Shown: positions 20,874 through 60,925 of the stretch, piece by piece
How positions within the stretch are numbered: position 1 is the first letter of the stretch
Layout: each line of letters opens with the position of its first letter
Assembly (NCBI GenBank): GCA_902784345.1
Contig: CACZUD010000001.1
Location: 30,810-94,809, forward strand
Length of the DNA stretch: 64,000 nucleotides
Direction of reading: 5' to 3'
Source of the DNA: an uncultured Pseudomonadota bacterium
Lineage (GTDB): Bacteria > Pseudomonadota > Alphaproteobacteria > Rs-D84
Program-made: the position numbers and the translations under genes
The notes under the pieces: model-generated
The model's database searches: none
What the model was told of the DNA's origin: nothing
The model's input: only the letters and a program-made list of their open reading frames with translations

Positions 20874-21121
20874 GATTTTTATCCTTTTTTCTGTTGTTAT
20901 CCTCGGTCAGCAGATGTAAAAAACCAGATATTTCTGGACAGAAATTATACCCGCTGCCTGTGTTCTTCGTGCAAGCACGTGTCGCCATAATAAACCAAAT
21001 CCGCCCTGAAATCAAGTATTTTTTAATAAAATCCCCCTTTTTTATTTTTTGATAAAAAATTGACAAAAAGTATTGACAAATTATATTTTTGGTCTATATT
21101 TATAGTATAAGGATGACGAGA

Positions 21122-23074
21122 ATGAAATCATTAAAAAACATCTTTACAGTTTTATTCACGGTCGCATTCACAACGACAAGCGCCGTTGCTGCGCCTGATT
21201 GTCGTAATGCAACGTATCGCGCAACATATCCTGAAAGATGTGCAAAAGTTCAAAAATCTGGCAATAATAACACATTTTTGGCGCTGTTGGGCGGGGCAGC
21301 TTTGGCGGGAATCGGTGTTGCGTTGGCAACCCAATCTTCTGGGGACAGCGGATCGTCATCAACAATTTCGAACCAAAGCAGTTTCCCACGTTTGACTTTA
21401 ACCAGCAATATTCATGTGAACTATGCTCAAACGGACCATATAAAGAACCAAAGAATTGCGTCTTTTGATTATATATCTAATTACAACAGTGTTGATTCAT
21501 ACAAATTGAACAACGTAAGATCATCTGCAACATATCAAAAGAACAAAAAACAATACGACAATATCCACTTTGACATTGCCATGGCGCGTGGTTTCACAGG
21601 CAAAGGCACAACCATCAATGTGCTTGACGACTTTAACACCTATCATGGCCACAGCGTTTACGAAATTGCATCAACTATCGCAAGCGATGCAAATATAGTA
21701 AAAACAAACATCGCAAATTCTGATAATAATTTACAATCTTACGATTATATTGCCAACACAATTAACCAATCTGGCAAATTCGACATTTATAACGCCAGTT
21801 GGCAAATCGCCTCTTCTGATTCAATAAATGCCGCGCAGGCAATCTACAACACACAATCAGAAACAAAAACTTACGCATCTGCTCAAGAATATATGTATGG
21901 CATTACCAGTTACAATTTTGTAACACAAATAAGAAATTCTGCGATTGACAATGATTCTATCTTTGTATGGGCGGCGGGCAATGAATCTAAGACAGAAAGC
22001 GGTGCATTATCTGCTCTGCCACTGGCGTTTCCAGATTTACAAGGTCATTTTGTAAACGTTGTTGCAGTTGATAAAAATAATAATCTGGCGTGGTACAGCA
22101 ATCAATGTGGCATAACACAAAACTATTGTATTGCCGCACCAGGTTCTGGATGGGACACAGAAGCAAAAGATTATGCCAGCGGAACAAGTTTTGCCGCACC
22201 TGTTGTATCTGGCGCAATTGCAACAATCAAAGAAGCGTTTCCGTATATGAATGCAGAAAAAATAACACAATTGTTGTTTGTAACTGCCAAAGACTTGGGG
22301 GAAACAGGGGTTGATTCTGTCTATGGTTGGGGATTGTTGGATATGGAAAAAGCAACACGACCTGTTGGAACCCCAAAAATTGTTTTAGCTAACGATACAA
22401 TTCGCCCATTAAATTCTATTAACGTTTCTGGTTCTGCCGCAAATGTAATAAAAAACGCGAACGTAAAAATTGCTTTTGTTGATGATTTCGGACGCGCGTT
22501 TACAACAAATTTATCAGACAATATAAATGTTACGCCTTATGGTCGTGGTTTTGAAAAATTAACAGAAAGCAACCAAGATTCCGTAACTTTGTTTGACACA
22601 GTTGAATTTGGGTTCAAACAAAATCATATGTTGGAATCTTCAGGTTTGGTTTCTGTTAAATCCAACCAATTAACAAACTTTGTTGGATACAAAAACGAAT
22701 TCAATGTGGATAATGTTCGTTTTTATCAAAACGCTCGCTTTGGTGTCAGCAACCCAACAGCAGATGAAAATTCTATTATCTCTGGATTTTCAAACATATA
22801 TTCTGCATCTTTGAAAGTCGGCGCACAATTTGAAAAATTTGCACTTGAAATTGAAATACCTGACACAATCATATCAGGTAATATGTATTTAAATACCCCA
22901 ACTGACATGGATAACTATGGCAATTTAATATATAACAAAACTGCCATAAATATGGCAAATCGTCCAAGTACTGAATATACCGTTAAATATGGTGCATTAT
23001 CAGCAACATTTGTTGATAATCCAGACTATCAAAACGAAGTCATCTTGATGGCAAAAACAAAATTTGCGTTTTAA
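21122..23074 (+). CDS. S8 (subtilisin-like) serine peptidase with a C-terminal outer-membrane beta-domain
   Basis: Signal peptide MKSLKNIFTVLFTVAFTTTSAVAAP. Triad motifs are INVLDDF (Asp), YHGHSVYEIA (His), VWAAGNES (oxyanion Asn) and SGTSFAAPVVSGA (Ser). The C-terminus ends ...AKTKFAF, an aromatic terminal residue typical of OM beta-barrels. Confidence 0.85.
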   Translation: MKSLKNIFTVLFTVAFTTTSAVAAPDCRNATYRATYPERCAKVQKSGNNNTFLALLGGAALAGIGVALATQSSGDSGSSSTISNQSSFPRLTLTSNIHVNYAQTDHIKNQRIASFDYISNYNSVDSYKLNNVRSSATYQKNKKQYDNIHFDIAMARGFTGKGTTINVLDDFNTYHGHSVYEIASTIASDANIVKTNIANSDNNLQSYDYIANTINQSGKFDIYNASWQIASSDSINAAQAIYNTQSETKTYASAQEYMYGITSYNFVTQIRNSAIDNDSIFVWAAGNESKTESGALSALPLAFPDLQGHFVNVVAVDKNNNLAWYSNQCGITQNYCIAAPGSGWDTEAKDYASGTSFAAPVVSGAIATIKEAFPYMNAEKITQLLFVTAKDLGETGVDSVYGWGLLDMEKATRPVGTPKIVLANDTIRPLNSINVSGSAANVIKNANVKIAFVDDFGRAFTTNLSDNINVTPYGRGFEKLTESNQDSVTLFDTVEFGFKQNHMLESSGLVSVKSNQLTNFVGYKNEFNVDNVRFYQNARFGVSNPTADENSIISGFSNIYSASLKVGAQFEKFALEIEIPDTIISGNMYLNTPTDMDNYGNLIYNKTAINMANRPSTEYTVKYGALSATFVDNPDYQNEVILMAKTKFAF

Positions 23075-24587: not shown

Positions 24588-26045
24588 TTAGAATTTAACA
24601 CTTACGCCCATACGGATTCCCATTGATGAATAAACAGATTTGATTTCTTCTTTGCTTTCTATCTTCCATCCTTGACCGTTATAGAAATCAACAACTTCTT
24701 TTGCTTCATTTAAACTGGCTTGGTATGCCGCAATAGTTGTAGCAGAACCACCATTGTTTTCCAAATATGTAATCGCATTTTGAAGGCTTGTTACCATATC
24801 AGTATAATACGATTGATTTATATATGTTGTTGCGTCTGCTTTTTTTGCATTATAATAATCGTATGTCATTCCCAACGAGAACGAGACACTGTCTGTAATC
24901 GCGGTTGTCCAAGCAGCATTTAATCCCAAATGGTAAGCTTTTCCGAAACCAGCTTTGTCTTCGACACTGGTTGGATGCGCCCAATCGACACGATATGGCT
25001 GATTTCCCTTGGAATCATACATAGGCAATCCCAATTCAATTCCCGCAGTTACATTATTATTGTTGTTTATTGCATATTCCATATCCAAGGCAAGATACGG
25101 TCCATACCATTCTGTTTCATATTCGTGCGAAGTGCCGACCTGTTTATAATAATAAGTATCACCTAAATTTACTATTGCAGCCCCAGAAGGAATCAATATA
25201 TCCGACAACGACCCCAACGCATCTTCTGTTCTGCCCGTTACATAAGTCGATCCATCACTAGCGGCAAATAAAACAAAAGGATCGCACTGTGTTTCACCAT
25301 TCAATTCAATACAATTGATATACGGATGCTCAGAATTACCATTGAACACATCCATTGTCAAACCACTGTTGTCTTTTGTCACCAATTTGTGTTTGAAATA
25401 ACGATAACCAATAGAAGGTGTCATCTTTACACGGCCAACAGTAAAGAAATCAGTCAAACCGAAACCTGCATTGAATCCCATTTGGGTGCCATCTTTACTG
25501 GTACCAACACTCATTGCATATCCTGTAACAACTCCTTCCGTATACGCTTGAGATCCATATCCGCCCTTTGAAATATCATCATCAATCATAGAAGTTTCGC
25601 CAGATTGCATACCATATCTTGCACCGACATTAATCTGTATTGGTGTAGATGTATCAAAATAGTAAACAGCATCCGCACTTAAAACATTCCACGCCAAACC
25701 ATCATAACGCAATTTAGAACCCGCCTTGTCCATCTCTATATCCCAATTTGCGAATTCATGTGTCAAATTGCCAGCCAATTGAAAACCTTTCTTGTTCGAC
25801 ACAGATTTTTGTTGTGTTGAAGTTTTTTTGGTTACGCGTGTTGTTGTATTACGCGACATCATGGATTGTGTTTGCCCATAACCACGTCCCGCACCATAAG
25901 AGTTATAGTACCCACCACCATTTGAACCATAACGCTGTGAATTTTGGTACGTATTACCATTGTAATAAGTCCCTGCCGCGCCCGCAATAACAGGCATCAT
26001 AGCAAAAATACTGACGCTTAATACAGACAAAGATAATTTTTTCAT
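24588..26045 (-). CDS. Putative outer-membrane beta-barrel protein with a Gly/Tyr-rich and Thr/Lys-rich N-terminal linker
   Basis: Signal peptide MKKLSLSVLSVSIFAMMPVIAGAAG, then GGGYYNSYGAGRGYGQ and SRNTTTRVTKKTSTQQKS linkers. The C-terminus ...GIRMGVSVKF is an OMP-type terminal Phe. Confidence 0.6.
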   Translation of the reverse strand: MKKLSLSVLSVSIFAMMPVIAGAAGTYYNGNTYQNSQRYGSNGGGYYNSYGAGRGYGQTQSMMSRNTTTRVTKKTSTQQKSVSNKKGFQLAGNLTHEFANWDIEMDKAGSKLRYDGLAWNVLSADAVYYFDTSTPIQINVGARYGMQSGETSMIDDDISKGGYGSQAYTEGVVTGYAMSVGTSKDGTQMGFNAGFGLTDFFTVGRVKMTPSIGYRYFKHKLVTKDNSGLTMDVFNGNSEHPYINCIELNGETQCDPFVLFAASDGSTYVTGRTEDALGSLSDILIPSGAAIVNLGDTYYYKQVGTSHEYETEWYGPYLALDMEYAINNNNNVTAGIELGLPMYDSKGNQPYRVDWAHPTSVEDKAGFGKAYHLGLNAAWTTAITDSVSFSLGMTYDYYNAKKADATTYINQSYYTDMVTSLQNAITYLENNGGSATTIAAYQASLNEAKEVVDFYNGQGWKIESKEEIKSVYSSMGIRMGVSVKF

Positions 26046-26130: not shown

Positions 26131-26215
26131 GCGGTCGTGGCGAAATTGGTAGACGCGCAGCACTAAGGATGCTGTGGAGAAATCCTTGGGGGTTCAATTC
26201 CCCCCGGCCGCACCA
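26131..26215 (+). tRNA. tRNA-Leu with apparent anticodon AAG
   Basis: A hand-folded 85-nt class II tRNA: acceptor GCGGTCG/CGGCCGC, anticodon arm CAGCA-CTAAGGA-TGCTG (U33, A34 A35 G36, G37), a long variable arm, T arm GGGGG-TTCAATT-CCCCC, and encoded CCA. Confidence 0.85.
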
Positions 26216-26297
26216 TCTGTTTTTACTTAAAAATTACGAAAAATTTTATTTTGTACTTGCCACAAAAATTATAATTTTGCTAACATTTATTTAAGGA

Positions 26298-29147
26298 ATG
26301 AAAAGGACAATACTGTTTTTTGCTGTATGCCTTGGTTTGTCTGTATGTGGGACGACCTTTGCTGATGATGCAAATGCGGTTCGCAGTGCATCAAAACGCA
26401 CAACAACAACATTATCTTCACAACAAACTTCAGATCGTGCCGTATCAACAAACACAAAAAGATCGTCCAACACCCAAAATTCAGCAAAAAACAACAGGAC
26501 CGCTGTCCAACCACAACAGCGCGTTACATCACGTACAACAACACAACAAAATGTAAAACCTCGTGTAACCACTACAAAGACTACAACGTCCGCACGCACG
26601 ACAACGGCACGAACACCGGTTTCACGTTCTGTGAATTCGCGTCAAAACGAATCGAAAAAGACGGCAACTTCGCGCACCAGAACCCCTGTACAAACTATCA
26701 AACACAACTCCAGGGCAACAGAATTAAACAACGAAAAAATAACAACTATAAAATCGCTGAATTATTCAAAATGCAAAACGGTTTATTACGAATGCATGGA
26801 TGAATTCTGTGCTAACAAAGATACAAATTTACGCAGATGCGCTTGTTCTTCACGTATTCACGAATTCGATGACATAAAAAAGCAATTAAGTAATGCCGAA
26901 GATAAAATGCTGGATTTCAACCAACGTTTGCTGACTGTTAGTCTGGACAAAGAAGATGCCGCGGCAATCAATGTTGCTTCCGAAGGTGAACAGGGGTTCT
27001 CTACCAAGGATACCAGTACATCTGAAAAACTTTTGCAAAAAATAACTGAAAGTTTAAATGATTCTGGCGATTCTAAAATCAACAATAACTTATCTGCTAT
27101 ATCTTTATCGTTGGATATAGATTCTGCATGGGACAGCGTTGATTCAATGTCTGGGGTTGCGACTTCTGCAAAATCTGGTGTTGATTTGTATAATGCCGCA
27201 AATCCTGTTTGTGTTGCTATGGCCAAAGAAGTTTGTTCTGACGACGAATTAAACATTGCCAAAGATGGATACAAACTAACAATTCAACAAGATTGTGACA
27301 CTGTTAAAAAATCTTATAAAACACAATACAGCACTGCATTGGAAAAGATTCACGAAAGCAGTGCTTTGCTTGATATGTCGCGTTTAAATGTTTATCAACA
27401 ACGCAACAGTGATGACACTTTAACCTGCAAGAAAAAAATATTAAATCAGTTATCTGACACAACTGTTTGTGGCGAAGATTTGTACAAATGTCTTGATATG
27501 ACGGGACAATATATTGACCCATCTACAGGGAACGCATTTTTATCTGAAAACCTGTCTGAACTTTCAAATTTGTTGCAAGAACCAGCCAGTGGCGAAAGAT
27601 GGTCAAAAGTACAACGCAACGACAGTTTTGTTAAATATCTGAATTCGAAAAAGAAATTCTTGGAACCTGCAACAAAACAATGCCAAGACATTGCCGACAT
27701 GGTATGGCAAGACTTCTTGGACGATGCATTGGCACAAATAAAATTGGCACAAAACGCGAAAATGGAAGAAATCCGTCAAAGTTGCACGACCTTGGTTGCA
27801 GAATGCAAAACGAAGGCACAACAAAGTTTGTCTGATTTTGATGCACGCGCATTATCAACATTTAATATCGAAACAGATAAAACAGTCAACAAAATGTGTT
27901 CAGAAGTACAAACCGCGTGTTCTGGTTTGATGGCCAACAGTGAGATTGCAGCTCTTTGGTCTTCTGGCATGACCAGTATCGCAACAGATGTAACATATCA
28001 AAAAGTTATCGAAACTTGCACAACCATTGGACGCGATTGTATTGTACGTCAATGCAATGGAACAACTGGTAATTTTGCATTATGCCAAGAAGCAACCGAC
28101 AAAAACCGTCAAGCAATTTTAGATCATGATGTATGCTGGAATGAAGTTCTTGAATGTGTACAAAATGCCGATAACATTGACAATATGTCTGTTGTTCCAC
28201 ATAACGACTATTTGACATCCATATACGGCATGACCAGTGATGCCATACAGGCCGCACCAAACCCATGTGGTAATAATCCAACCAAAGCATGTCTTATCAC
28301 AGAACAAATTTGGGGGACATGTGAATACAAACCAAACCAATATTCAATAACTAATATAACAGGTGACAAATATAAGCCATCAAATAAAATCCTTACCCCG
28401 TCTTCTGGTGATAGTTTGTTATCATGGTTTGCCACAAACACAGGTACAACAGATTCCATAGACAGTTGCAATTCAAAGGGATGTCCTGTTAATTACGAAA
28501 AGATTAACGGAAAATGTCAACTGGCTGAGGCCTTAAGTAAAACAAGTGACTGTGGAAATCCTACAAATCCAAACCAAATTATCAATGTTACTGAAAATAT
28601 TACGAACTATTGTTATTTTGGCAGAAGAGATATTTATGGCAATTGTTGTGATAATGCTACACCAAACTCAAGCGCAAAAGACAACGGAATATGTGTTCCC
28701 GAAGGGGGCCACGCCGTGCGTTTATGGAATTTGAAGTGTACCGACACAGATGATTATTTTTGTCCAACAACCGGCAATTTGACATTATATTGCGTAACAA
28801 AATCACAGGCAACACAACCTATCGCATACTATACAACTTCTAGTGAATATGCGTGTGGTCTTATGCCTGATGGGGTGAGTTTTGACCAAACTGCACTGTG
28901 GGTTATTGTTGATGAAAACGGAAGATATTACAGCGCAGACAAAAACAATCCAACCAGCATTATGCGTTATATCTTGTTGGAACAAGAAGCAAGTTGTCCA
29001 ACAACATCTAAAATAACATGCAACTATGTCTACAGAAATGGTGCATGGGTTTGGGATGATGACGACAGTTCTAGAAACACTACAATTTGCACAAAAGTTC
29101 CAAACACACCAACAATTAACAATGAATTGTTGATAAAATACAGATAA
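26298..29147 (+). CDS. Large cysteine-rich exported protein (949 aa)
   Basis: Signal peptide MKRTILFFAVCLGLSVCGTTFA, then a ~125-aa basic Thr/Arg/Ser/Asn-rich linker. The N-module CKTVYYECMDEFCANKDTNLRRCACSSR follows, with many further Cys, including CNSKGCPVNYEKINGKC. Confidence 0.8.
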   Translation: MKRTILFFAVCLGLSVCGTTFADDANAVRSASKRTTTTLSSQQTSDRAVSTNTKRSSNTQNSAKNNRTAVQPQQRVTSRTTTQQNVKPRVTTTKTTTSARTTTARTPVSRSVNSRQNESKKTATSRTRTPVQTIKHNSRATELNNEKITTIKSLNYSKCKTVYYECMDEFCANKDTNLRRCACSSRIHEFDDIKKQLSNAEDKMLDFNQRLLTVSLDKEDAAAINVASEGEQGFSTKDTSTSEKLLQKITESLNDSGDSKINNNLSAISLSLDIDSAWDSVDSMSGVATSAKSGVDLYNAANPVCVAMAKEVCSDDELNIAKDGYKLTIQQDCDTVKKSYKTQYSTALEKIHESSALLDMSRLNVYQQRNSDDTLTCKKKILNQLSDTTVCGEDLYKCLDMTGQYIDPSTGNAFLSENLSELSNLLQEPASGERWSKVQRNDSFVKYLNSKKKFLEPATKQCQDIADMVWQDFLDDALAQIKLAQNAKMEEIRQSCTTLVAECKTKAQQSLSDFDARALSTFNIETDKTVNKMCSEVQTACSGLMANSEIAALWSSGMTSIATDVTYQKVIETCTTIGRDCIVRQCNGTTGNFALCQEATDKNRQAILDHDVCWNEVLECVQNADNIDNMSVVPHNDYLTSIYGMTSDAIQAAPNPCGNNPTKACLITEQIWGTCEYKPNQYSITNITGDKYKPSNKILTPSSGDSLLSWFATNTGTTDSIDSCNSKGCPVNYEKINGKCQLAEALSKTSDCGNPTNPNQIINVTENITNYCYFGRRDIYGNCCDNATPNSSAKDNGICVPEGGHAVRLWNLKCTDTDDYFCPTTGNLTLYCVTKSQATQPIAYYTTSSEYACGLMPDGVSFDQTALWVIVDENGRYYSADKNNPTSIMRYILLEQEASCPTTSKITCNYVYRNGAWVWDDDDSSRNTTICTKVPNTPTINNELLIKYR

Positions 29148-33124: not shown

Positions 33125-33946
33125 TTATTTCAAAGCTTCGATGATTCTTGAATATGGAATTGCACCTGGGAACGCTTGTTCGCCGATGATCAAGAAAGGT
33201 GTTCCTGTGATTTCAAAACGTTGTGCCAAATCACGAACATTTTGCAATTCTCTTTGAACAACTTCGCCTTCCATATCTGCTTCCAATTGCTTTGTATCCA
33301 AACCAACTTCTTTTGCAAAATTCATAACATTAGCATGGATTGTTTCAGGCAATTTCGCTTGATTTTTCATATCATCTTGTGTGTAGTATTCTTTGTCCAT
33401 CAACAATTTATCCAAAGCCGCAGCTTTTGCATTGTCTTGGATTTTAGCAGCGATAACTGCTTTTGCTGGGGCATCAGATAATGCACCATGGATAGAGAAG
33501 TTTTTCAAAACTACACGAACATCGTCACGTTCTGACAAAACACGAGACAATTCGCTGTGAACACGACGGCAATATGGGCAAGAATAATCAGACCACAAGA
33601 AGATTGTATTCTTGGCATCTACATTACCAGCGATTGGTGCATCGCCAATCATTTCGTTCATATGTTTTTTAACATATTTGCGAACTTCTGCATTTTTTAC
33701 TTTTTCTTGTTCTGCCTGCATATTTTGAACCATTTCTTGCAAGATAGCAGGATTTGTTTTTACCAAGTAAACAGGTGTAATCAAACGGCATACGCAACCA
33801 GCAATCAAAATAATTGCAACAGCATTGATACCTTTGTGTATTACGACGTCAAGGGCCGCGGCTTTCTTGTTGCCAGCTTTGATGAACATGCCACCAAAAA
33901 CATACAAAGCGATCGCCAAGACCAGGATTAAAAGTGTCCAAATCAT
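33125..33946 (-). CDS. Membrane-anchored DsbA-family thiol:disulfide oxidoreductase
   Basis: N-terminal TM(s), a CPYC active site (WSDYSCPYCRRVHSEL), and a thioredoxin-fold C-terminus (ITGTPFLIIGEQAFPGAIPY). Confidence 0.8.
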   Translation of the reverse strand: MIWTLLILVLAIALYVFGGMFIKAGNKKAAALDVVIHKGINAVAIILIAGCVCRLITPVYLVKTNPAILQEMVQNMQAEQEKVKNAEVRKYVKKHMNEMIGDAPIAGNVDAKNTIFLWSDYSCPYCRRVHSELSRVLSERDDVRVVLKNFSIHGALSDAPAKAVIAAKIQDNAKAAALDKLLMDKEYYTQDDMKNQAKLPETIHANVMNFAKEVGLDTKQLEADMEGEVVQRELQNVRDLAQRFEITGTPFLIIGEQAFPGAIPYSRIIEALK

Positions 33947-38636: not shown

Positions 38637-41600
38637 TTATATTCCCAATCTGTGATGAATTTTGAACATCATAATGGATTCGTTTCCAAAGGCATCTGTA
38701 TTACCTGGATTCACACGATATATAAAACCAATACCAGCATCAGTAAATTCGCCAAGCGGATGACGGTACGCGCCAGAAAATCTTAATTCACGTTTTTGCG
38801 GTGCCAAATCAATATATTCAACATGTGGATTATTTACAGCAACCTCATATGCACCATTATTTTCGACAACAGACAAATCTGCATAATCATAACCCATCCG
38901 ACCATCAACAACCGCCAAAGGCATCGCCGCTGAAAAATTGAACCCGTATGCATCCACCCCCAGCGCAAAAGCATTTGATTTTATATTCGACAATTCAGAA
39001 ATAATTCCGTCCCCAATATTTGCAACCGTATCTGCAAATGTTGCACGCGCAGATAAATTTACTTTTTCAAATGGTTTATAATTGGCAACCATATCAACAT
39101 ATTGTGTCTTTGCACCATTCAAAGCCAACAAACCATCGTTTATCGCACCCAAAACAGTATTTGTTTCATTCATATTTCCAAGCGATACATCCAAACCGAA
39201 TTTTTCATTATTATATGACACTTCGACGGCACCACCATTTGCAAACCCTAAACGCGCAGGTTCAAATTGTGATGACACAACAGGATCAGTTTCCAATAAA
39301 TTTTCATCTGTCATCGTACCCGAAAAAGCGTTTACACCGAATGCGAAATTACCAGTTTTATATTTTGCACCACTTGATACACTGTTCGATACCAAAGACA
39401 ACACGCCATTTGCCCGACCGCAGAATCTGGATTCTCCGTTCGTCAGATAACGTTGATAGCCCGCACCTAAGTCATAATTTTCATTACTGAATTTTACATT
39501 CAAATTATCCAAACCATTCAAACTATCGACATACGCACGTGGCGACATAGCCATATCAAAAGTCATATTGCCAATCTTGTTAATATGTTTATTGGAAGAA
39601 TCAACTGCAAAATCTGCCAAGACATCACCCATGTAAAGGCCATGATTTGAATCACCACCCAAAGAAAATTCATTTTTCCAAACACGCGGTAAAGATATCG
39701 AACCGTCTGCACTTTCAAGAACATCATAGAAAGAAGTTTTTATTACACCACGCCCGTTTAATACTGTCGAAGCACGCCCAGAAGAACTATTTGTTGTCGT
39801 TGTAATTTTGCTCCAAAACGCATTACCAGAAGTGGACACAATAGAATTAGTATTAGATGAATAAAAATATACATTTGTAGTTGGACGCGTTGCACGTTCA
39901 AGGTTTATCATCCCATAACCAAACACATTTTTAAAACTTTCCAAATATTGAGAATCTGAAGAATCAAGGCTGTCTGGCAATTCATACAATCCACGCAAAT
40001 AACTTATCAAATCCGCATTATCTGTCCATTTTGAATATTCACTAGAACTGTTTGGATTTACACCAAGGTATGGACCATCCGCAGTCAACGCTAACAACAA
40101 GAATATTTGATTTGGTGTCATATAACTGAATGCACTTTTAACAGAAGCAACCGCACCAGCCATCGAAGCTGCCGCCTCTAAATCCGTAGTACCAGGTGCC
40201 GCAAAACACCATGGATTCATCGCACCACCATTACCAGTTCCCGCCAAACCACATATACGCGAAGAATAAGTTATATTGGAATCTGTTGCATCTTCCCATG
40301 TTGATAATTCTAATTTACCCGCACCAGAAGCATTATATTGATCGACTGTCAAACCCGATGTTCCTGTTGTGGCATTTGGTTTAACCGCAACCACCGTCAT
40401 AAACAAATTCTGCAAATCGTTATAGACAACTGGCGCAAAGTTTTCAAAAGTCGCAACTTGCGGACTTAAAGCCCCACCGTTTGACAAGCCAAACAAACTG
40501 TGCCCTGCAGAATTAACCAATATCTGCCCATCTTTGATAGTTCCTTTGGCTGCTAAAAGATTGTATGAATCTTTTGCATTACTAGACGGAACTCCAAAGG
40601 CCTCCGTATCATTTGTTGTATCAAGATTATAATAAAAATCTATCAAATAAGCATAACCATTTTGTCTTGAATTCGTAGTGTCCCCATATTTCGCGGTCCA
40701 CTTGTTAACCCATACGTTTGCATCATTGACATTTGCATATGAAAGGCTGCTAGATTCTGATGGCATTGCTAAATTTGCGACAACATTTACATTTGCACCA
40801 GACAAAGTCAAAGCCTGGTATATTGCCGCATAATTTTTATAATCAGACACCCCTGCTTCGCCTGTACCTATTTTATATACAGTTAATTGACCGTTTGGAA
40901 CAAAACCATAAAAATCACCTGTTGTGCGTCCACCCTCTTCCCAACCTGCAATTATTTTCGCCAATTTAGTATCTTCATCAGTAGCCGGATTAGTGGTCGA
41001 ACCAAACACTGTTGTTCCATTAACCAAATCGAAATCACCGTCTTCGACAGGTGTTTCACCCAACGTCCCGGTTAAATTATAATATTTATGTGACAACTTC
41101 ACAGATGCATTAACTGCGGCCTGACATGCAGCCGATGGTGCAACACCCGCTGGACACAACGAAGCCAAAGTATTTTTAGCAGAATCATCAAACCATTCAA
41201 TTATCCCATCAACCGCACTGCCGTTGGCATTAACCCCAGATGCAGTTATCATTGCAACATTTATTGGTTTGCCACCATTTGGTGTTTCATTAAAAGGGTA
41301 TGCAGACAAATCAAAAACTTCTTTTGTTGTATCGTTTCTGACGGTTGACATACCCAGATAGCCACGCACAAAGGCATTATATGCGCGTGCAACCATCAAA
41401 TAATTAAAAGTATTCTGTGTTGATGTATCTGACATATGAGTAAAATCTGGACTGTCTTGCCATACAGTAAAATCAGTTGGACAAGACGATCCACTGCACG
41501 CAGGACCATAAGGCAGATTTTGTGTGAACAATGTGTTAGTTGGTGTCGTCGTGCTACTGCCACCGCCACCGCCACTGCCAGAATGAGACCCCCCAGAAGA

Positions 41601-42053
41601 AGATACATTGTTATTTTTTGCGTCAAACACGTTCGTCAACAAAGCAACACCACCAATAACAGCGGCAACGCCAACCGCCGACAATGCCAATACATGCGAC
41701 GAAGACAATCCGCTGAAAAATCCGTACTCTTCACCTTTTGCTGCAACACGAGATTTTTGTTTATAGTTTTTGATTTGTCGATCACATTGCGAAGCATCTG
41801 CACCGTACATTTGCAAGACCTGTATCGCGCGTCTATCATTGTTCATCACAGCGGTACAAACCAACGACAAACCTGTTGAATCAACATAGTTTACATTTGC
41901 ACCATTGTTAATCAAAACTTGAACAGTCTGGGTATCGCCACGACGTGCAGCAGACAACAATTGCGAAGCAGTTTGAAATTCAGACGACGTTGCCGCGAAC
42001 GACATGCAAGGAATTAAAAACCATAAAACGCCCAAAATTCTAACAAATTTCAT
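38637..42053 (-). CDS. Ankyrin-repeat / subtilase-like (probably degenerate) protein with a C-terminal OM beta-domain, 1138 aa
   Basis: Signal-like N-terminus, then two ANK repeats (LLSAARRGDTQTVQVLINNGANVNYVDSTGLSLVCTAVMNNDRRAIQVLQMYGADA), a hydrophobic segment and a Gly/Ser linker. Blocks paralogous to 21122..23074 include GKPINVAMITASG, ILVNSAGHS, FMTVVAVKPN, WCFAAPGT, AAASMAGAVASVKSAFSYM and YGYGMINLERATRP. The C-terminal domains are also similar. Confidence 0.75.
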   Translation of the reverse strand: MKFVRILGVLWFLIPCMSFAATSSEFQTASQLLSAARRGDTQTVQVLINNGANVNYVDSTGLSLVCTAVMNNDRRAIQVLQMYGADASQCDRQIKNYKQKSRVAAKGEEYGFFSGLSSSHVLALSAVGVAAVIGGVALLTNVFDAKNNNVSSSGGSHSGSGGGGGSSTTTPTNTLFTQNLPYGPACSGSSCPTDFTVWQDSPDFTHMSDTSTQNTFNYLMVARAYNAFVRGYLGMSTVRNDTTKEVFDLSAYPFNETPNGGKPINVAMITASGVNANGSAVDGIIEWFDDSAKNTLASLCPAGVAPSAACQAAVNASVKLSHKYYNLTGTLGETPVEDGDFDLVNGTTVFGSTTNPATDEDTKLAKIIAGWEEGGRTTGDFYGFVPNGQLTVYKIGTGEAGVSDYKNYAAIYQALTLSGANVNVVANLAMPSESSSLSYANVNDANVWVNKWTAKYGDTTNSRQNGYAYLIDFYYNLDTTNDTEAFGVPSSNAKDSYNLLAAKGTIKDGQILVNSAGHSLFGLSNGGALSPQVATFENFAPVVYNDLQNLFMTVVAVKPNATTGTSGLTVDQYNASGAGKLELSTWEDATDSNITYSSRICGLAGTGNGGAMNPWCFAAPGTTDLEAAASMAGAVASVKSAFSYMTPNQIFLLLALTADGPYLGVNPNSSSEYSKWTDNADLISYLRGLYELPDSLDSSDSQYLESFKNVFGYGMINLERATRPTTNVYFYSSNTNSIVSTSGNAFWSKITTTTNSSSGRASTVLNGRGVIKTSFYDVLESADGSISLPRVWKNEFSLGGDSNHGLYMGDVLADFAVDSSNKHINKIGNMTFDMAMSPRAYVDSLNGLDNLNVKFSNENYDLGAGYQRYLTNGESRFCGRANGVLSLVSNSVSSGAKYKTGNFAFGVNAFSGTMTDENLLETDPVVSSQFEPARLGFANGGAVEVSYNNEKFGLDVSLGNMNETNTVLGAINDGLLALNGAKTQYVDMVANYKPFEKVNLSARATFADTVANIGDGIISELSNIKSNAFALGVDAYGFNFSAAMPLAVVDGRMGYDYADLSVVENNGAYEVAVNNPHVEYIDLAPQKRELRFSGAYRHPLGEFTDAGIGFIYRVNPGNTDAFGNESIMMFKIHHRLGI

Positions 42054-42186: not shown

Positions 42187-43050
42187 ATGAAAGTTCGCGA
42201 TTTTATTTTTTTCGGATGTTTGTTTACTGTGCCCAGCTTTGTTTACGGGGCATGTTCAGTTGCTAATTTAACAAGGTGTTTAGATTCTGTATGTGCAATA
42301 AATGTTGGCGCAAATCCTGCGGCAAGATGCCAATATTGCGGTTCTGCATCTGCGGGTGAACCATCAAAGTCAACCACAATGAAAAGTATTTCTGCTGGCA
42401 CATCTGCAAAGTACACTATTTCTGACAAAGAATTAAAGAAAGCACCATCTGATCCGGGCGAAAGATACGTTTGGGGAACAAAACTTTGTCTGCAAAAAGT
42501 TTCTGGATGCACACCTGATGATGTCAGTGATAATTATGATTCATTAATTGAACAATCCTGTAAAGCGGCTGGGATATCTGCTGAATTTGAAAAATTGGCA
42601 GAAAAAGCCAACGAACAAAAAACATCGTCTTCATGTTCTTCGGAAATATCAGCCTGTGTTATAAACGCGAAACGGTGCACTGCAAATTACAGGAAATGCG
42701 AATCAGATTCTGAATTTGATAAATACTTTTCTGAATGCAGTGTCGCATCTGTTGGGTGTGATGAATATTTAAAGGACATTCGTGCACAGTTAATATCTTC
42801 ACGCGACACGTCAATTGCAAATGCAGACAAATTATTACAAACAATTATTGCGTCATATAAATCTGCGCGCGAACAGAAATTGGCGACGGCACAATCGTCT
42901 TGCAAGAACAACAAGGCAAAGTTAGATTGTGTTCAACGTGTTTGTCAAACCAATATGCGAAATAAATGCGAAGTTGGATTTGAATACGAAAGCACACTTG
43001 CAGAACAATTATGCAAATTCTATGACACCGCATGCGAAAGGTTGAAATAA
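42187..43050 (+). CDS. Cysteine-rich exported protein (287 aa)
   Basis: Signal-like N-terminus, then CSVANLTRCLDSVCAINVGANPAARCQYC immediately after it. About 24 Cys in total. Confidence 0.7.
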   Translation: MKVRDFIFFGCLFTVPSFVYGACSVANLTRCLDSVCAINVGANPAARCQYCGSASAGEPSKSTTMKSISAGTSAKYTISDKELKKAPSDPGERYVWGTKLCLQKVSGCTPDDVSDNYDSLIEQSCKAAGISAEFEKLAEKANEQKTSSSCSSEISACVINAKRCTANYRKCESDSEFDKYFSECSVASVGCDEYLKDIRAQLISSRDTSIANADKLLQTIIASYKSAREQKLATAQSSCKNNKAKLDCVQRVCQTNMRNKCEVGFEYESTLAEQLCKFYDTACERLK

Positions 43051-43053
43051 AAA

Positions 43054-44862
43054 ATGAAACAGAACAATAAATTTTTTATCGCGATGTTATCCATAATTAT
43101 TGGGGCTGGTTTTTCTGCATTTGAAACGGCGGACGCTGCATCGGCACGCACCCCTGTTCGCGTAAGCACTGCAACATCACGTCGTCCGGCGACAACGACA
43201 GTGGCCAATACAAGTTTGAATACAACAACTGAAACATTAAATACTGTAGAAGAAGAACCAGTTTCGACAACAGAAGAAGAACCAGAAGAAATAATAATTG
43301 AAAACAAGTCTTCCAGTTTTGATGTTTCTGTATCCGCAGGAACCGAATCGTCTGTGTCTGACAATTCGTTTGCGGAACAAATTCGCAAACAGCGCGCCGC
43401 ATTTGAAGCAAACGAAGCAACATCAAACGCAACAAACGCACAAAAAAATGCCGCAAAAACCAGCAGCAACTCATGCGACAGCAATTTGCGCAAATGTATG
43501 GCAACAAAATGCGGGAATGATTTCACAAAATGTGCTTTGGATGGCGACACAATATTTGGCGACAAATTGAACGCATGCCGTCGTGATACAGAATGTACCG
43601 GCGAAGAATTCAGTTTATTCACCGCCGAAATCAAGGCTGATCGTGATATGAATGTACGTTTGGCATCTTATAATAATGTAATAAACTGTGGAAACCAATA
43701 CAACGCATGCTTGGTAAACGAATGTGGAAAAACATATAATAAATGTTTGGGCAAAGCAGCGGCAGATGCGGCAATAAAAAAATGTGGCACAATCGCAAAA
43801 GAATGCACAGAAGCAGATTCAGGCTTGGCAAATCGTTTTGGCACAGTAATCGGCAAATTACGTGAAAATGCAGAAAAAGAAGTCAAGAAAGATGACGAAC
43901 GTATGTATGCAATGCGTGATTCAATGCAAAGCATCTGCAAACGCATGGGCGCAATGTTTGACGAACGCACATTTGATTGCGTATTCACAGTGAATTTCTT
44001 TGCGGGTAATGACCAAAAGAATCCTATGGCATCACGCAAACGCTATGCGGGGGACACATTTGTATGTATGCAAGAATGGTTTGGTGTGAACGTAACAACA
44101 TATAAAGAAAACGCATATCGTGAAACACGTGCACAAACTGGCGCATCATCTGCACTGTTGGGTGCCGGTGTTGGTACAGCGGCTGGTCTTGTTACATCTG
44201 GCGCAATCGGACGTGCAATAGATACTCAAAAAGCAAAGAAAGATTTTAAATCGGAATGCAAATCCCAAGGCGGAACATTAAAAGGTGGCGAATGCGTGTT
44301 TGCTAATCGACAAACAGAAACATCTGCCGAACAGACTTCTTCTCAACAAAATTTGCAAGATGCAGCAAAAGAACAAACAGGTTCTCAACAAAGTCTGCAA
44401 GATGCGGCAAAAGAACAAACAGGTTCTCAACAAAGTCTGCAAGATGCTGTAGCGGCACAAAAAAAGTTTGAAGCAGAAAAAGAAAAAGAAAAATTTTCTG
44501 ACGATTCAAAGATGCTTGAAGCTATCGACAAAATAAAAGTACCAGAACAAGATATGACCAAAGTAAAAAACAACTCAACAGAAACATCTAAAAAAAGCAC
44601 CACCAGTGCAAAAAAATCTGGCACTAAAAATAAAACAACAACTTCTTCCGGCAGCAAAGCAAAAAGCAGCACCTCTTCTTCATCCAGTAACACAAAGAAG
44701 ACAACAACTTCTTCCGGCAGCAAAGCAAAAAGCAACACCTCTTCTTCATCCAGCAACACAAAGAAGACAACAACTTCTTCCGGCAACAAAACAAATGAAC
44801 CCAAGAAATCAGAATTTGTGAAAATGTTAGAAAATAATCAACAAAACTTTTCTTGGAAATAA
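43054..44862 (+). CDS. Cysteine-rich exported/bitopic protein with tandem-repeat tail (602 aa)
   Basis: Signal peptide, an ARTPVRVSTATSRRPATTT linker and an acidic stretch. Two C-x6-C-x4-C-x6-C modules follow, then a Gly/Ala-rich hydrophobic helix. The tail has 14-aa and 22-aa tandem repeats. Confidence 0.75.
   Translation: MKQNNKFFIAMLSIIIGAGFSAFETADAASARTPVRVSTATSRRPATTTVANTSLNTTTETLNTVEEEPVSTTEEEPEEIIIENKSSSFDVSVSAGTESSVSDNSFAEQIRKQRAAFEANEATSNATNAQKNAAKTSSNSCDSNLRKCMATKCGNDFTKCALDGDTIFGDKLNACRRDTECTGEEFSLFTAEIKADRDMNVRLASYNNVINCGNQYNACLVNECGKTYNKCLGKAAADAAIKKCGTIAKECTEADSGLANRFGTVIGKLRENAEKEVKKDDERMYAMRDSMQSICKRMGAMFDERTFDCVFTVNFFAGNDQKNPMASRKRYAGDTFVCMQEWFGVNVTTYKENAYRETRAQTGASSALLGAGVGTAAGLVTSGAIGRAIDTQKAKKDFKSECKSQGGTLKGGECVFANRQTETSAEQTSSQQNLQDAAKEQTGSQQSLQDAAKEQTGSQQSLQDAVAAQKKFEAEKEKEKFSDDSKMLEAIDKIKVPEQDMTKVKNNSTETSKKSTTSAKKSGTKNKTTTSSGSKAKSSTSSSSSNTKKTTTSSGSKAKSNTSSSSSNTKKTTTSSGNKTNEPKKSEFVKMLENNQQNFSWK
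44344..44447 (+). repeat. In-frame 42-nt tandem repeat (~2.5 copies)
   Basis: The unit CAACAAAGTCTGCAAGATGCGGCAAAAGAACAAACAGGTTCT encodes QQSLQDAAKEQTGS. Copies lie at 44344, 44386 and a partial one at 44428. Confidence 0.9.
44635..44786 (+). repeat. In-frame 66-nt tandem repeat (~2.3 copies)
   Basis: The unit encodes TTTSSGSKAKS[SN]TSSSSSNTKK. Copies lie at 44635..44700, 44701..44766 and a partial one from 44767, differing at 2 nt. Confidence 0.9.
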
Positions 44863-53463: not shown

Positions 53464-53603
53464 AAAGTATCCTTTTTTTTATTAAAGCCACTATTAAATA
53501 ACACAAAATATAAATTCTGTCAATTATTTTTATTCAAAAAATACAAAGTTTTTATAAAAAACTGTTATTTTTGACACTTTTTCATGATAAAATACTAAAT
53601 ATC

Positions 53604-54626
53604 ATGAAAAAGCTTTTTTATTTTATTTTTATTGTTGGTATGGCAATTCCCGCGTACGCAAAATTATCGGCAACCTTGTTTCCGACGACCGCACAGGATT
53701 TATCTTTTAAATCGCGTGTGGAAATTGCAACCGAAGGATACAAACCATTTCTAGACAAAAAAGCCTATGAAGAATTAAACGTTGTCCCAGGCGAAGAATT
53801 TTACACAGACCGAATAATCGCAGAAATGGAAGCAGAAAATAACCAGCAAGAAACAGATGCACGAACAATGTCTCTGAACGAATATTGTGCAAAATATCCT
53901 TATGATTATACAAAATGCCCGCGCCCAACAGAACCATCAGAAACAGTGCAACAAACACCACAAAGCCAGCAACTGACACAACAACAAACATATTTTTCTG
54001 GCAGAACGATTGGCGGGGGGCCTGTTGTTGAAAACAATTATGTAACTGGTGGTTCTTGTTATCCTGCAGCAAGAGACAGGAATTTTGAAGATAAAATTTG
54101 GACTACTGGTAAATATGAAAAAATGCATCCGGCATTTGAAAAAGGTTTAATCACTGTATTCAGGAAAGAAGGAAAATGTGGCAAAATCAGGGGTGATCAT
54201 TGCGGATACACTTGCTATGGGATAAGTGAGTGTGCCGGCGTACGCGTCAGTTCGCGTGCCGAAGCAGAAGAAGTTTATTACAAACAATATTGGAAACCAA
54301 AAAAATTTGAAAGATTACCAGACGTTATCGCCAGCGATGTGTTCGTGGCTGCTGTATGGAGTGGTAATGGTACAGCCATGCAACATCTCAGAGATTTTTT
54401 AGGTTTACCAATAAAAAGTACCCCTGTGGACAATGAAGTGGTAAAAGCTATCAATAATTACCAGGGCGATATATACAATGATTGGATAAATTATCGTGAA
54501 GCGTTTTTAATGGATGTCGCACGCCGACGCTATAACGGCAGTGTAAGCAACGGCTTCAGAAATGCGATTGAATTAAAACGCAAAAATGGATGCCATGTTC
54601 GTCCAACAGAACCACTTTATCGTTAA
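53604..54626 (+). CDS. Exported GH108-like peptidoglycan hydrolase (lysozyme-like)
   Basis: I set the start at MKKLFYFIFIVGMAIPAYA (signal peptide). The C-terminal half reads VFRKEGKCG...GYTCYGIS...AEEVYYKQYWKPKKFERLPDVIASDVFVAAVWSGNGTAMQHLRDFLGL. By eye it follows the GH108 pattern EGG...GGxTxYGI...YxxxYWxxxxxxxLPxxxAxxxFDxAVNxGxxxAxxxLQ. Confidence 0.6.
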   Translation: MKKLFYFIFIVGMAIPAYAKLSATLFPTTAQDLSFKSRVEIATEGYKPFLDKKAYEELNVVPGEEFYTDRIIAEMEAENNQQETDARTMSLNEYCAKYPYDYTKCPRPTEPSETVQQTPQSQQLTQQQTYFSGRTIGGGPVVENNYVTGGSCYPAARDRNFEDKIWTTGKYEKMHPAFEKGLITVFRKEGKCGKIRGDHCGYTCYGISECAGVRVSSRAEAEEVYYKQYWKPKKFERLPDVIASDVFVAAVWSGNGTAMQHLRDFLGLPIKSTPVDNEVVKAINNYQGDIYNDWINYREAFLMDVARRRYNGSVSNGFRNAIELKRKNGCHVRPTEPLYR

Positions 54627-54670: not shown

Positions 54671-55573
54671 ATGAGAAAAAGAATCTTTGGTTTTATGGCA
54701 CTGTTATTCATCGCTGCCGATGCGTTTGCAGTGAACAACTATATTCCAAAAAAATTTAATACTGTAACTTCATATGACGATGTTTATCCTTATCGGTTAA
54801 ACAACACGAAAACAAATACTAACGCAAAAGATATATCGACAACAACTGCCAGACGCGCGGTCGTTCCCCGTTCAACAAAAACAGCACGTGCAACAGCAAA
54901 TACTGCCGCACCACAAGCGCGTCGTGTTGTTCAACGTTCTAACACACGTGCACGCGCTGCAAACAATTCCGTATCTAGTACAAACGTTGGTGCACGTTCT
55001 GCAACCGCACCAATACGCGTACGAAACACAAATACGACACGCACAACAACGACAACATATTACAACACAACAAACGAACAACCTTCTTCTCAACGTTGCA
55101 TGGCTGATTACAAAGAATGTATGGAAGATTATTGCAAACGCGAAGATACTGCCTATAATCGTTGCTATTGCAGTGCGCGCTTGGCACAAATTGATGCAAA
55201 ATATCAAAATAAAATCGACGAATTAATTCAAAAAATTATCCGTTTGAAATACAACACTAATGCAAACAGTGATGAAATCAAAGAATACTGGAATCAAACA
55301 GTTGGCACACAAACAGGGGACAATCCTTGGGTGAATATTGATAATGCTCTTAATATTGAATGGGCAGATGCACAAAGCCGTATTCGCGGACAAAACGCCT
55401 TTAATACGGGACATCAATATTGTTCTCAACATTTACGCGCATGTTATTATATGGCATCGAATTTGCGTGATGCGTACAAATCTGAAATTGCACGCGATTG
55501 TGAAGCGTACGAAAAAAGCTTGCAAAGAATCCAAGATGCCGCAGAAAGTGTGATAGAGAGTTATAATGATTAA
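54671..55573 (+). CDS. Cysteine-rich exported protein (300 aa), small paralogue of the 26298 gene's N-module
   Basis: I set the start at MRKRIFGFMALLFIAADAFA. A basic Thr/Arg/Asn-rich linker follows (ARRAVVPRSTKTARATANTAAPQARRVVQRSNTRARA...). It then has CMADYKECMEDYCKREDTAYNRCYCSAR. Confidence 0.7.
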   Translation: MRKRIFGFMALLFIAADAFAVNNYIPKKFNTVTSYDDVYPYRLNNTKTNTNAKDISTTTARRAVVPRSTKTARATANTAAPQARRVVQRSNTRARAANNSVSSTNVGARSATAPIRVRNTNTTRTTTTTYYNTTNEQPSSQRCMADYKECMEDYCKREDTAYNRCYCSARLAQIDAKYQNKIDELIQKIIRLKYNTNANSDEIKEYWNQTVGTQTGDNPWVNIDNALNIEWADAQSRIRGQNAFNTGHQYCSQHLRACYYMASNLRDAYKSEIARDCEAYEKSLQRIQDAAESVIESYND

Positions 55574-60842: not shown

Positions 60843-60925
60843 CTCTCTCTGGCACATTATATCACAAAAAAAAGATTATATAAATATAAAAATTGCATTT
60901 TGATTTATAAACCGCTACAGTGTTT

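Follow-up and report, generated by a model that had tools for sequence, protein, structure and literature searches.

A modular cysteine-rich protein of Enterousia-like gut Alphaproteobacteria and the eight-cysteine domain it shares with a shorter paralogue

Results

A 949-residue cysteine-rich protein is conserved in one lineage of gut bacteria

We analyzed a stretch of 64,000 nucleotides (the window) from an uncultured alphaproteobacterium of the order Rs-D84 (assembly GCA_902784345.1, contig CACZUD010000001.1, forward-strand positions 30,810 to 94,809). It holds a gene for a 949-amino-acid (aa) cysteine-rich protein, which the original prediction, made from the letters alone, had described as linking two types of Cys module and sharing one of them with a 300-aa paralogue. 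We found that the shared motif is part of a larger 8-Cys domain, named N8 here, over which the 949- and 300-aa proteins are paralogous, and that the 949-aa protein has the sequence features of an exported, oxidised and modular protein. The gene and its upstream neighbourhood are as follows.

26298–29147 (+): gene of the 949-aa exported Cys-rich protein, 40 mature Cys (open reading frame, homologues, conserved synteny)
26216–26297 (+): conserved upstream region with a promoter-like CTTGCC...TAACAT and an AAGGA ribosome-binding site (four-locus DNA alignment)
24588–26045 (−): Pom-family porin-like outer-membrane protein (Pfam, synteny)

The 949-aa open reading frame (ORF) is a genuine gene, conserved and core to Candidatus Enterousia-like gut Alphaproteobacteria. 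It has 868 homologues (E ≤ 1e-3). Of these, the best 120 are for the most part full length, share 48–73% identity with it, are annotated as "hypothetical" or left nameless, and come from gut metagenome-assembled genomes (MAGs) labelled Alphaproteobacteria. Loci retrieved through the neighbouring 602-aa protein belong to Candidatus Enterousia and to MAGs from rumen, ileum and faeces. Enterousia (order Rs-D84) are described as having genomes of 0.75–1.0 Mb without a tricarboxylic acid cycle or a respiratory chain, are suspected to depend on a partner, and encode many membrane proteins that lack an explanation (PMC12306168).

The order of genes is kept in orthologous loci at 49–57% protein identity, and runs DUF3078 outer-membrane protein, 205-aa protein, Pom-family porin, 949-aa gene, pth, small outer-membrane protein, polA, DsbA-like gene, recO and ppiD-like gene. 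The porin gene is the divergently transcribed neighbour of the 949-aa gene in every orthologous locus examined. In an alignment of four such loci, the DNA just 5′ of the ATG was nearly invariant; the promoter-like region, the AAGGA ribosome-binding site and the signal-peptide DNA together (26216–26366) are almost unchanged across loci with 49–57% protein identity. The porin gene and the 949-aa gene are separated by a tRNA-Leu(AAG) gene (26131–26215, +). The porin-like protein itself matches Pfam Pom (Protochlamydia outer membrane protein, E = 3.6e-11), here in an alphaproteobacterium, and has a low-complexity N-terminal extension that is first G/Y/N-rich and then T/K-rich. A Subtilase (Peptidase_S8) gene (21089–23074, +) belongs to the same conserved envelope-gene neighbourhood and was found in some orthologous loci; another has a gene for an MFS transporter instead. 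At one distant orthologous locus (L020:2561-6889, −), an inserted 1442-aa gene, for which Pfam gave only a faint hint, separates the 949-aa orthologue from the porin gene.

Scans with Pfam (E ≤ 0.1), NCBIfam, PHROGs and PADLOC returned nothing for the 949-, 300-, 287- or 602-aa proteins of the window, and a PDB sequence search with the 949-family profile gave no match at E ≤ 1. The 949 family is uncharacterised and restricted to one lineage. No copies were found by tblastn in collections of phages and plasmids, and a mobile-element origin of the gene was dropped.

The 949-aa protein is built from distinct regions

An alignment of 44 orthologues (A1) was the basis for scoring Cys conservation and for an AlphaFold2 model. 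Conservation below is the majority-residue frequency per region, and pLDDT is the predicted local distance difference test score of the model.

26298–26366 (+): signal peptide, aa 1–23, MKRTILFFAVCLGLSVCGTTFA with the cut before DD (read from the sequence; helix 5–18 in the model); conservation 0.89
26367–26747 (+): basic T/S/R/N/Q-rich disordered linker, aa 24–150 (composition, pLDDT ~30); conservation 0.48
26760–27317 (+): N8 domain, aa 155–340, predicted all-alpha, with 8 invariant Cys at 159, 166, 171, 181, 183, 305, 313 and 333 (hhalign to the 300-aa family, Cys invariance); conservation 0.83, first third 0.90
27318–28001 (+): long-helix region (helical middle), aa 341–568, with 8 invariant Cys at 377, 391, 398, 462, 496, 503, 534 and 541 (alignment, model); conservation 0.77
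28002–28181 (+): 6-Cys helical module, aa 569–628, C-x6-C-x4-C-x9-C-x16-C-x6-C (alignment, model pLDDT 80–93); conservation 0.70
28215–29144 (+): C-terminal beta-rich domain, aa 640–949, 16 conserved Cys plus the pair C752/C900, fast-evolving (model pLDDT ~85–93); conservation 0.47, last 150 residues (aa 801–949) 0.41

The linker of ~125 residues is 25% T, with S, R, N and Q besides, and contains 15 R and 9 K; its net charge is +20. With A1 as input, AlphaFold2 left the linker disordered and predicted helices up to about aa 670, at low confidence as far as about aa 560; aa 570–949 were modelled confidently (pLDDT about 85–93) and are beta-rich beyond aa 730. When Foldseek compared the 949-aa model with PDB and BFVD and the 300-aa model with PDB, no structure was retrieved at E < 0.09 and the matches were generic helical bundles only. 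The model that AlphaFold gave for the 300-aa family was too uncertain to use (pLDDT 52). The C-terminal domain of the 949-aa protein is thus a confidently predicted fold without a relative among known structures. Scanning the N8 and 6-Cys profiles over the rest of the protein revealed no internal duplication beyond chance.

The signal peptide was judged not to be that of a lipoprotein. The lipobox L-[ASTVI]-[GAS]-C does not occur; C17 is conserved in 1 of 44 orthologues, and the invariant C11 sits in the hydrophobic core, after F-A-V and only ~7 hydrophobic residues. An N-terminal Ala-Asp motif for attachment to peptidoglycan is a feature of Rhizobiales outer-membrane proteins. This idea was dropped as well, since no common motif of that kind is found at the mature N-termini predicted for the exported proteins of the window.

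The 949- and 300-aa proteins share an entire 8-Cys domain

The original prediction had drawn attention to a Cys-rich segment that directly follows the linker in both proteins.

26772–26867 (+): 32-residue N-module with 5 Cys, CKTVYYECMDEFCANKDTNLRRCACSSRIHEF, aa 159–190 of the 949-aa protein, straight after the T/S/R-rich linker
54671–55573 (+): 300-aa paralogue with a signal peptide, a basic T/R-rich linker and N8 (aa 139–300, nucleotides 55085–55570), 8 Cys (profile alignment)

The 300-aa ORF has CMADYKECMEDYCKREDTAYNRCYCSARLAQI at aa 143–174, following a similar linker. Both sequences fit C-x6-C-M-[DE]-[ED]-[FY]-C-x9-C-x-C-S-[SA]-R where they had been placed, and the Arg ahead of the fourth Cys, pointed out at the same time, turned out to be invariant in both families (R180 in 949, R164 in 300). 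The motif is real, but with five Cys it is odd in number and not the whole unit: it is the first third of a predicted all-alpha, 8-Cys domain of ~185 residues. Profile–profile alignment by hhalign, which had been proposed as a check, gave a relation larger than the one claimed. The whole folded part of the 300 family (aa 141–297) aligned with aa 157–354 of the 949 family at a probability of 97% (E = 1.1e-10), and all eight Cys were in register (300/949: 143/159, 150/166, 155/171, 165/181, 167/183, 251/305, 258/313 and 277/333). These alignments support the view that the two proteins are paralogues across the entire 8-Cys domain, beyond the 32 residues. We define N8 as C-x6/7-C-[ML]-[DE]-x2-C-x8-10-R-C-x1-2-C-[SG] followed by C-x6/7-C-x16-19-C in an all-alpha context; the 949- and 300-aa proteins fit this pattern, and the 602-, 1008- and 498-aa proteins of the window do not match it.

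Could such likeness arise by chance among low-complexity Cys-rich ORFs, with no meaningful feature behind it? Pairwise BLASTP between the Cys-rich proteins was mostly insignificant, and the 949–300 alignment (E = 2e-7) lies in large part in the low-complexity linker. With the linker removed, however, a hidden Markov model (HMM) of aa 150–215 of the 949 family still retrieved the 300-aa ORF at E = 5e-8, as the sole match among 366 six-frame ORFs of the window, and the profile–profile E value of 1e-10 held too. None of 2000 composition-preserving shuffles reached the real score of the N-module, a column-shuffle test gave z = 12.2, and each family has hundreds of conserved orthologues. A chance origin, which had been named as the outcome that would undo the claim, is refuted for the 949–300 pair by HMM, hhalign, shuffles and column shuffles alike, and is scarcely credible for the feature as a whole.

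The 300-aa gene lies between an exported GH108 lysozyme-like gene upstream (53571–54626, +) and an arginase-family gene downstream (55566–56408, +; 8-nucleotide overlap). Both flanking genes differ between orthologous loci.

A 287-aa protein probably carries a third, divergent N8 copy

A looser form of the motif had been noted in a further ORF.

42187–43050 (+): 287-aa protein with 20 mature Cys in an N8-like 8-Cys part (aa 20–130, nucleotides 42244–42576), 6-Cys module 2 (aa 145–200, nucleotides 42619–42786) and 6-Cys module 3 (alignment, regular expression, skeleton tests)

The motif is there, as C-x7-C-L-D-x2-C-x11-C-x2-C with R47-C48 invariant. Its family has the 5+3 Cys skeleton of N8, C-[LM]-D at the second Cys and Arg ahead of the fourth. 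Tolerant regular expressions for the skeleton and the decorated motif selected exactly the 949-, 300- and 287-aa proteins among the ORFs of the window and 119 of 120 members of each family. For shuffles of the 287 sequences, a match had P < 1e-5 (decorated motif) or P = 2.5e-4 (skeleton). We then aligned the families by nothing but their Cys positions and compared the 61 non-Cys columns with permuted columns. The 949–300 comparison, our positive control, scored z = 6.9, 949 versus 287 scored z = 5.0 (0 of 20000 permutations reached the real score), and 300 versus 287 scored z = 2.5 (P = 0.009). Runs of hhalign with the 287 family independently picked the 3-Cys half as the top local match.

Other searches gave no significant link between 287 and N8, neither HMM scoring against shuffles (P = 0.48–0.88) nor hhalign (P = 0.002–0.08, probabilities ≤ 13%). 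An exhaustive HMMER search of 1.84 billion representatives with the 287 profile returned 65 proteins, none of 949- or 602-type length: they are members of the 287 family, short fragments that align to parts of the profile, and one 840-aa tandem-repeat protein that we read as spurious. The family is very narrow and lineage-restricted, and its members hardly deviate from 287 aa in length. Taking these results together, the 287-aa protein probably carries a third, divergent copy of N8.

Even Cys counts point to disulfides

We next considered the state of the cysteines. In A1, the 949-aa protein has 38 conserved mature Cys, of which 34 are invariant and four more are present in at least 39 of 44 orthologues. 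They are distributed as 8 (aa 155–340), 8 (aa 341–568), 6 (aa 569–628) and 16, or 18 with C752/C900 (aa 640–949). The last pair is present in full in 16 orthologues, as one Cys alone in 1 and not at all in 27, a co-occurrence of 16/17. The mature Cys count is 38, 40, 42, 44 or 46 in 111 of 120 members of the 949 family, the additional pairs having been gained in the C-terminal part; it is 8 in 116 of 120 members of the 300 family and 20 in 113 of 120 members of the 287 family. An even count per module, one of the checks proposed for the original prediction, was therefore seen in the mature proteins of all three families and in each region of the 949-aa protein.

A candidate enzyme for disulfide formation is encoded ~4 kb from the 949-aa gene, in kept synteny.

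33125–33946 (−): membrane-anchored DsbA-like thiol-disulfide oxidoreductase; N-terminal transmembrane helices, CPYC active site (synteny with the 949-aa gene)

The even counts, the signal peptides and the syntenic DsbA-like CPYC protein together favour disulfides over metal sites. The 949-aa protein has what is expected of a putative DsbA-dependent exported disulfide protein, namely a signal peptide, an even number of conserved Cys and a DsbA-type oxidoreductase in the genome, and the view that it is exported, oxidised and modular is well supported by its sequence. Binding of Zn or Fe-S clusters by the same cysteines is very unlikely. Their density, the CxC and C-x4-C spacings and an anaerobic organism without a respiratory chain would suit metal sites; a clear signal peptide, even counts in three families, pairwise gain as at C752/C900, few conserved His near Cys, a DsbA-like oxidoreductase in conserved synteny and no Pfam metal-binding domain speak against them.

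A proposed conserved base and variable tip

Conservation falls from the N-terminal to the C-terminal end of the folded part of the 949-aa protein, and the last 150 residues of family members share 34% identity with the query. A similar picture came from related-strain contigs of four gut metagenomes (≥ 85% identity), which cover the tRNA, the signal peptide and N8 but hardly the linker or the C-terminus; these DNA contigs are fragmented and strain-mixed and therefore unsuited to an estimate of dN/dS, the ratio of nonsynonymous to synonymous substitution. The 300-aa paralogue consists only of a signal peptide, a linker and N8. From this composition and the conservation gradient, we infer a conserved base, an exposed variable tip and a structural or adhesive role.

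We lean towards a reading of the 949-aa protein as a modular Sec-exported protein with DsbA-type disulfides, a conserved base and a variable tip, and a structural or adhesive role in the envelope. The signal peptide would direct Sec export, and the periplasmic DsbA-type system would oxidise the cysteines. N8 is preceded by a disordered tether of ~125 residues that is polycationic and T/S/R-rich, and the two would form an autonomous, strongly constrained base docked to some invariant part of the cell's own envelope. A disulfide-stapled helical stalk (the 8-Cys region and the 6-Cys module) may then project the head outward or to a partner surface. The head would be the fast-diverging, beta-rich domain with 16–18 Cys, bearing one hairpin of a type that is repeated in the 1008-aa neighbour. 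Such a protein could serve as a structural or adhesive envelope component of a partner-dependent bacterium.

Several points weigh against this reading. Neither an anchor for the outer membrane nor a beta-barrel, a lipobox or a secretion-system gene was seen with the 949-aa gene, and the location of the protein may be purely periplasmic. The faster divergence of the C-terminus may stem from relaxed constraint and not from exposure. The signal peptide is conserved far above what is usual, which may reflect an uncleaved inner-membrane anchor in place of a cleaved signal, or a constraint at the level of the mRNA. The lineage is reportedly without respiratory chains, so the route by which DsbA is re-oxidised is a puzzle. 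The N-terminal half of the model is poor (pLDDT 40–70), and the regular-expression and skeleton tests that tie the 287-aa protein to N8 were devised after the Cys positions had been seen.

A secreted toxin, effector or bacteriocin-like weapon against a host or competitor would also be exported, Cys-rich and stable-looking, with a variable C-terminal domain of no known fold, and the organism is probably partner-dependent. Yet the gene sits in a fixed neighbourhood of housekeeping and outer-membrane-protein genes in every orthologous locus examined, with no immunity gene or secretion system seen adjacent. The C-terminus has diverged but is alignable throughout and keeps its Cys scaffold, unlike the swapped ends of polymorphic toxins, and there are no phage or plasmid copies and no PADLOC or PHROG matches. 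We regard a weapon as quite unlikely.

A wider version of the conserved-base reading is a speculative one. Here, a lineage-specific envelope kit would reuse the tether and N8 as an anchoring unit in at least three proteins, and the 949-aa protein would add a stalk and a novel head that attaches to a partner cell or host, as an independent analogue of the chlamydial Cys-rich complex.

A Cys hairpin recurs in the 1008-aa protein

A second type of module had been proposed to connect the C-terminal part of the 949-aa protein with two other Cys-rich genes.

28467–28517 (+): hairpin motif CNSKGCPVNYEKINGKC, aa 724–740 of the 949-aa protein (regular expression, profile tests, model)
44898–47879 (+): 993/1008-aa protein (called 1008-aa here) with a CarboxypepD_reg domain and tandem Cys hairpin units, nucleotides 46260–46772 (Pfam, regular expression, profile tests)
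1–720 (−): 5′ part of a gene for a Cys-rich protein of 498 aa, with a single hairpin unit of the loose form, CKPTKCKDGYKLDDKNGKC; the gene runs off the window

The full length of the last gene, 498 aa, was recovered from an identical contig. In the 949-aa motif, C724, C729 and C740 are invariant and residue 733 is Y or F in 41 of 44 orthologues; strands predicted by AlphaFold2 at 733–736 and 739–742 would make the hairpin. Among the ORFs of the window, the strict expression C-x4-C-x3-[YF]-x4-G-x-C occurs once in the 949-aa ORF, twice in the 1008-aa ORF and in no other, and shuffled 949 sequences contained the strict form at a frequency of 4e-4 and the loose form at 6e-3. A profile of the 949 hairpin scored against the 1008 repeats above all 50 column shuffles (z = 6.8; HMM P = 0.003) over ~20 columns, and the rest of the C-terminal domain showed no similarity to these repeats (P about 0.6). 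The sharing that had been proposed thus holds for the spacing in the 1008-aa protein; the 498-aa gene has only a looser form, once, and the likeness is motif-deep. On these comparisons, the hairpin is a shared structural motif of 17–20 residues for which common descent and convergence are inseparable.

A separate 6-Cys module joins the 287- and 602-aa proteins

43054–44862 (+): 602-aa protein with a signal peptide, a T/R linker, two 6-Cys modules (nucleotides 43459–43623 and 43672–43833), a Gly-rich hydrophobic segment and S/T/K-rich repeats (alignment, profile tests)

The 602-aa protein had been listed as a further carrier of a looser N-module. It does contain C-x6-C-[ML]-x3-C-x6-C twice, but the R-C-x-C ending is missing and the regular expression found no N8. 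Its two modules have the form C-x6-C-x4-C-x6-C-x12/14-C-x5/6-C, and resemble each other and module 2 of the 287-aa protein (13–15 bits, 0 of 2000 shuffles; column-shuffle z = 4.4–5.5). This similarity supports a common 6-Cys helical module in the 287-aa protein (module 2) and the 602-aa protein (both modules) that is likely separate from N8. N8 is only weakly similar to the 6-Cys modules, including that at aa 569–628 of the 949-aa protein (P = 0.008–0.5, z from −1.0 to 2.8), and the 949 module is marginally similar to those of the 287- and 602-aa proteins.

The C-terminal third of the 602-aa protein holds (T/G)SQQ(N/S)LQDAAKEQ three times and S/T/K-rich SSGSKAKS.TSSSSSNTKKTTT units, a repeat region whose length varies strongly across orthologous loci (ORFs of ~360 to 870 codons). 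A Gly-zipper-like hydrophobic segment (for example ALLGAGVGTAAGLVTSGAIG) followed by a K-rich tail is found in the 602-aa (aa ~363–386), 1008-aa (aa ~800–825 of 993) and 498-aa (aa ~445–465; L024:10994-12490) proteins; the 949-, 300- and 287-aa proteins have none. Kinship of these segments was set aside as marginal and compositional (P = 0.003–0.74 beyond composition).

Do all six Cys-rich ORFs (949, 300, 287, 602, 1008 and 498) then descend from one superfamily, with two shuffled module types and the 949-aa protein as connector, as the original prediction had argued? The 949-, 300- and 602-aa proteins have the same layout of signal peptide, T/R-rich linker and Cys modules, N8 occurs in two proteins and probably a third, the 287- and 602-aa proteins have a 6-Cys module in common, the hairpin profile links 949 to 1008, and many module pairs score weakly positive (z about 2–2.8). 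Against this stand the between-group hhalign results (P = 0.01–0.5, z ≤ 2.4), the C-terminal domain of the 949-aa protein, which taken in full shows no match to the 1008 repeats, and the lack of 6-Cys or N8 profile matches elsewhere in that protein. The HMMER search with the 287 profile likewise reached only proteins of 287-aa length or shorter besides the spurious repeat protein, and motifs as simple as a helical C-x6-C staple or a 3-Cys beta-hairpin can arise by convergence. We consider a single superfamily rather unlikely. What stands of the idea is the 949–300 relation, the probable 287 copy and the 287–602 module; one superfamily for all six was not demonstrated. The window's Cys-rich genes are best described as a network of shared modules in lineage-specific, putatively exported disulfide proteins, not as one demonstrable superfamily, and the original interpretation is supported in part.

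Comparison with known Cys-rich proteins

The nearest functional analogues of the 949-aa protein may be the chlamydial Cys-rich envelope proteins and Helicobacter Hcp. Like OmcB and OmcA, it is large, very Cys-rich and apparently exported, has a basic N-terminal region before the Cys-rich domains and comes from a host-associated bacterium with a reduced genome; its gene also adjoins that of a Pom porin, a family initially described from Protochlamydia. The basic N-terminus of OmcB binds heparan sulfate. The linker at aa 24–150, with its net charge of +20, could pass as an OmcB-type basic segment, by analogy only. OmcB/Chlam_OMP6 and DUF11 models gave no Pfam (E ≤ 0.1) or NCBIfam match in the 949-, 300-, 287- or 602-aa proteins, and the 949-aa protein has no sequence or fold likeness to OmcB or OmcA, its N-terminal half being predicted as helical and not as beta-rich DUF11-type repeats. 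OmcB and OmcA sit in a disulfide-cross-linked outer membrane complex. As a further difference, Enterousia are reported to retain peptidoglycan-synthesis genes (PMC12306168).

Hcp (Sel1-like) proteins are secreted, consist of disulfide-stapled alpha-helical hairpins and form a paralogous family within one genome of a host-associated proteobacterium, as may be the case here. However, no Sel1 (PF08238) or other Pfam match was found, and neither N8 nor the 6-Cys module is repeated within the 949-aa protein in the manner of tandem Hcp/Sel1 repeats of ~36 residues. The Cys spacing, C-x6-C-x4-C-x9-C-x-C ... C-x7-C-x19-C, is not that of a 36-residue one-disulfide repeat, and the 949-aa protein also has a long basic linker and a beta-rich head. 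The plant 8-Cys motif (8CM, of the nonspecific lipid-transfer protein or 2S albumin type) resembles N8 superficially, as a small all-alpha unit with 8 Cys and a C-x-C element; N8 lacks the adjacent CC pair, has other spacing and has no Pfam match. Epidermal growth factor (EGF)-like repeats, which stand in series in eukaryotic surface proteins, are comparable to the predicted beta-hairpin units in the tandem array of the 1008-aa protein, but the hairpin unit has 3 Cys and not six, there is no EGF-family Pfam match, and the 949-aa protein has one recognisable copy. For an autotransporter or inverse autotransporter barrel, the 949-aa chain offered no Pfam domain and no Foldseek barrel match, the model being helices and then a compact beta-rich domain. 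Since the defining sequence features of OmcB, Hcp, 8CM and EGF are missing, the 949-aa protein is a member of none of these groups.

Other exported proteins of the window

Two further exported proteins are encoded in the window. A 1138-aa protein (38637–42053, −) has ankyrin repeats right after the signal peptide (Pfam Ank_4, E = 8e-6). Bacterial ankyrin-repeat proteins are typical of host- or partner-interacting lineages. A 266-aa protein (60057–60857, −), whose gene adjoins OmpA-family and LptC/LptB genes, has scattered mature Cys, no database match and no match to the Cys-module profiles.

Discussion

Candidatus Enterousia and its relatives, all uncultured, are widespread in the gut and have genomes of ~1 Mb or less; they might live as free scavengers, epibionts or parasites (PMC12306168). 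If the role of the 949-aa protein were merely structural and periplasmic, its family would be one more lineage-specific family of hypothetical proteins. New here are a defined 8-Cys domain and a confidently predicted C-terminal domain without a structural relative, and the pattern of a conserved base and a variable tip predicts which end of the protein would face outward. A genome of ~1 Mb that retains a 949-residue protein with 38–46 Cys together with Cys-rich paralogues, several kb within 64 kb, suggests that an envelope or surface role of these proteins is probably important to the lifestyle of the bacterium.

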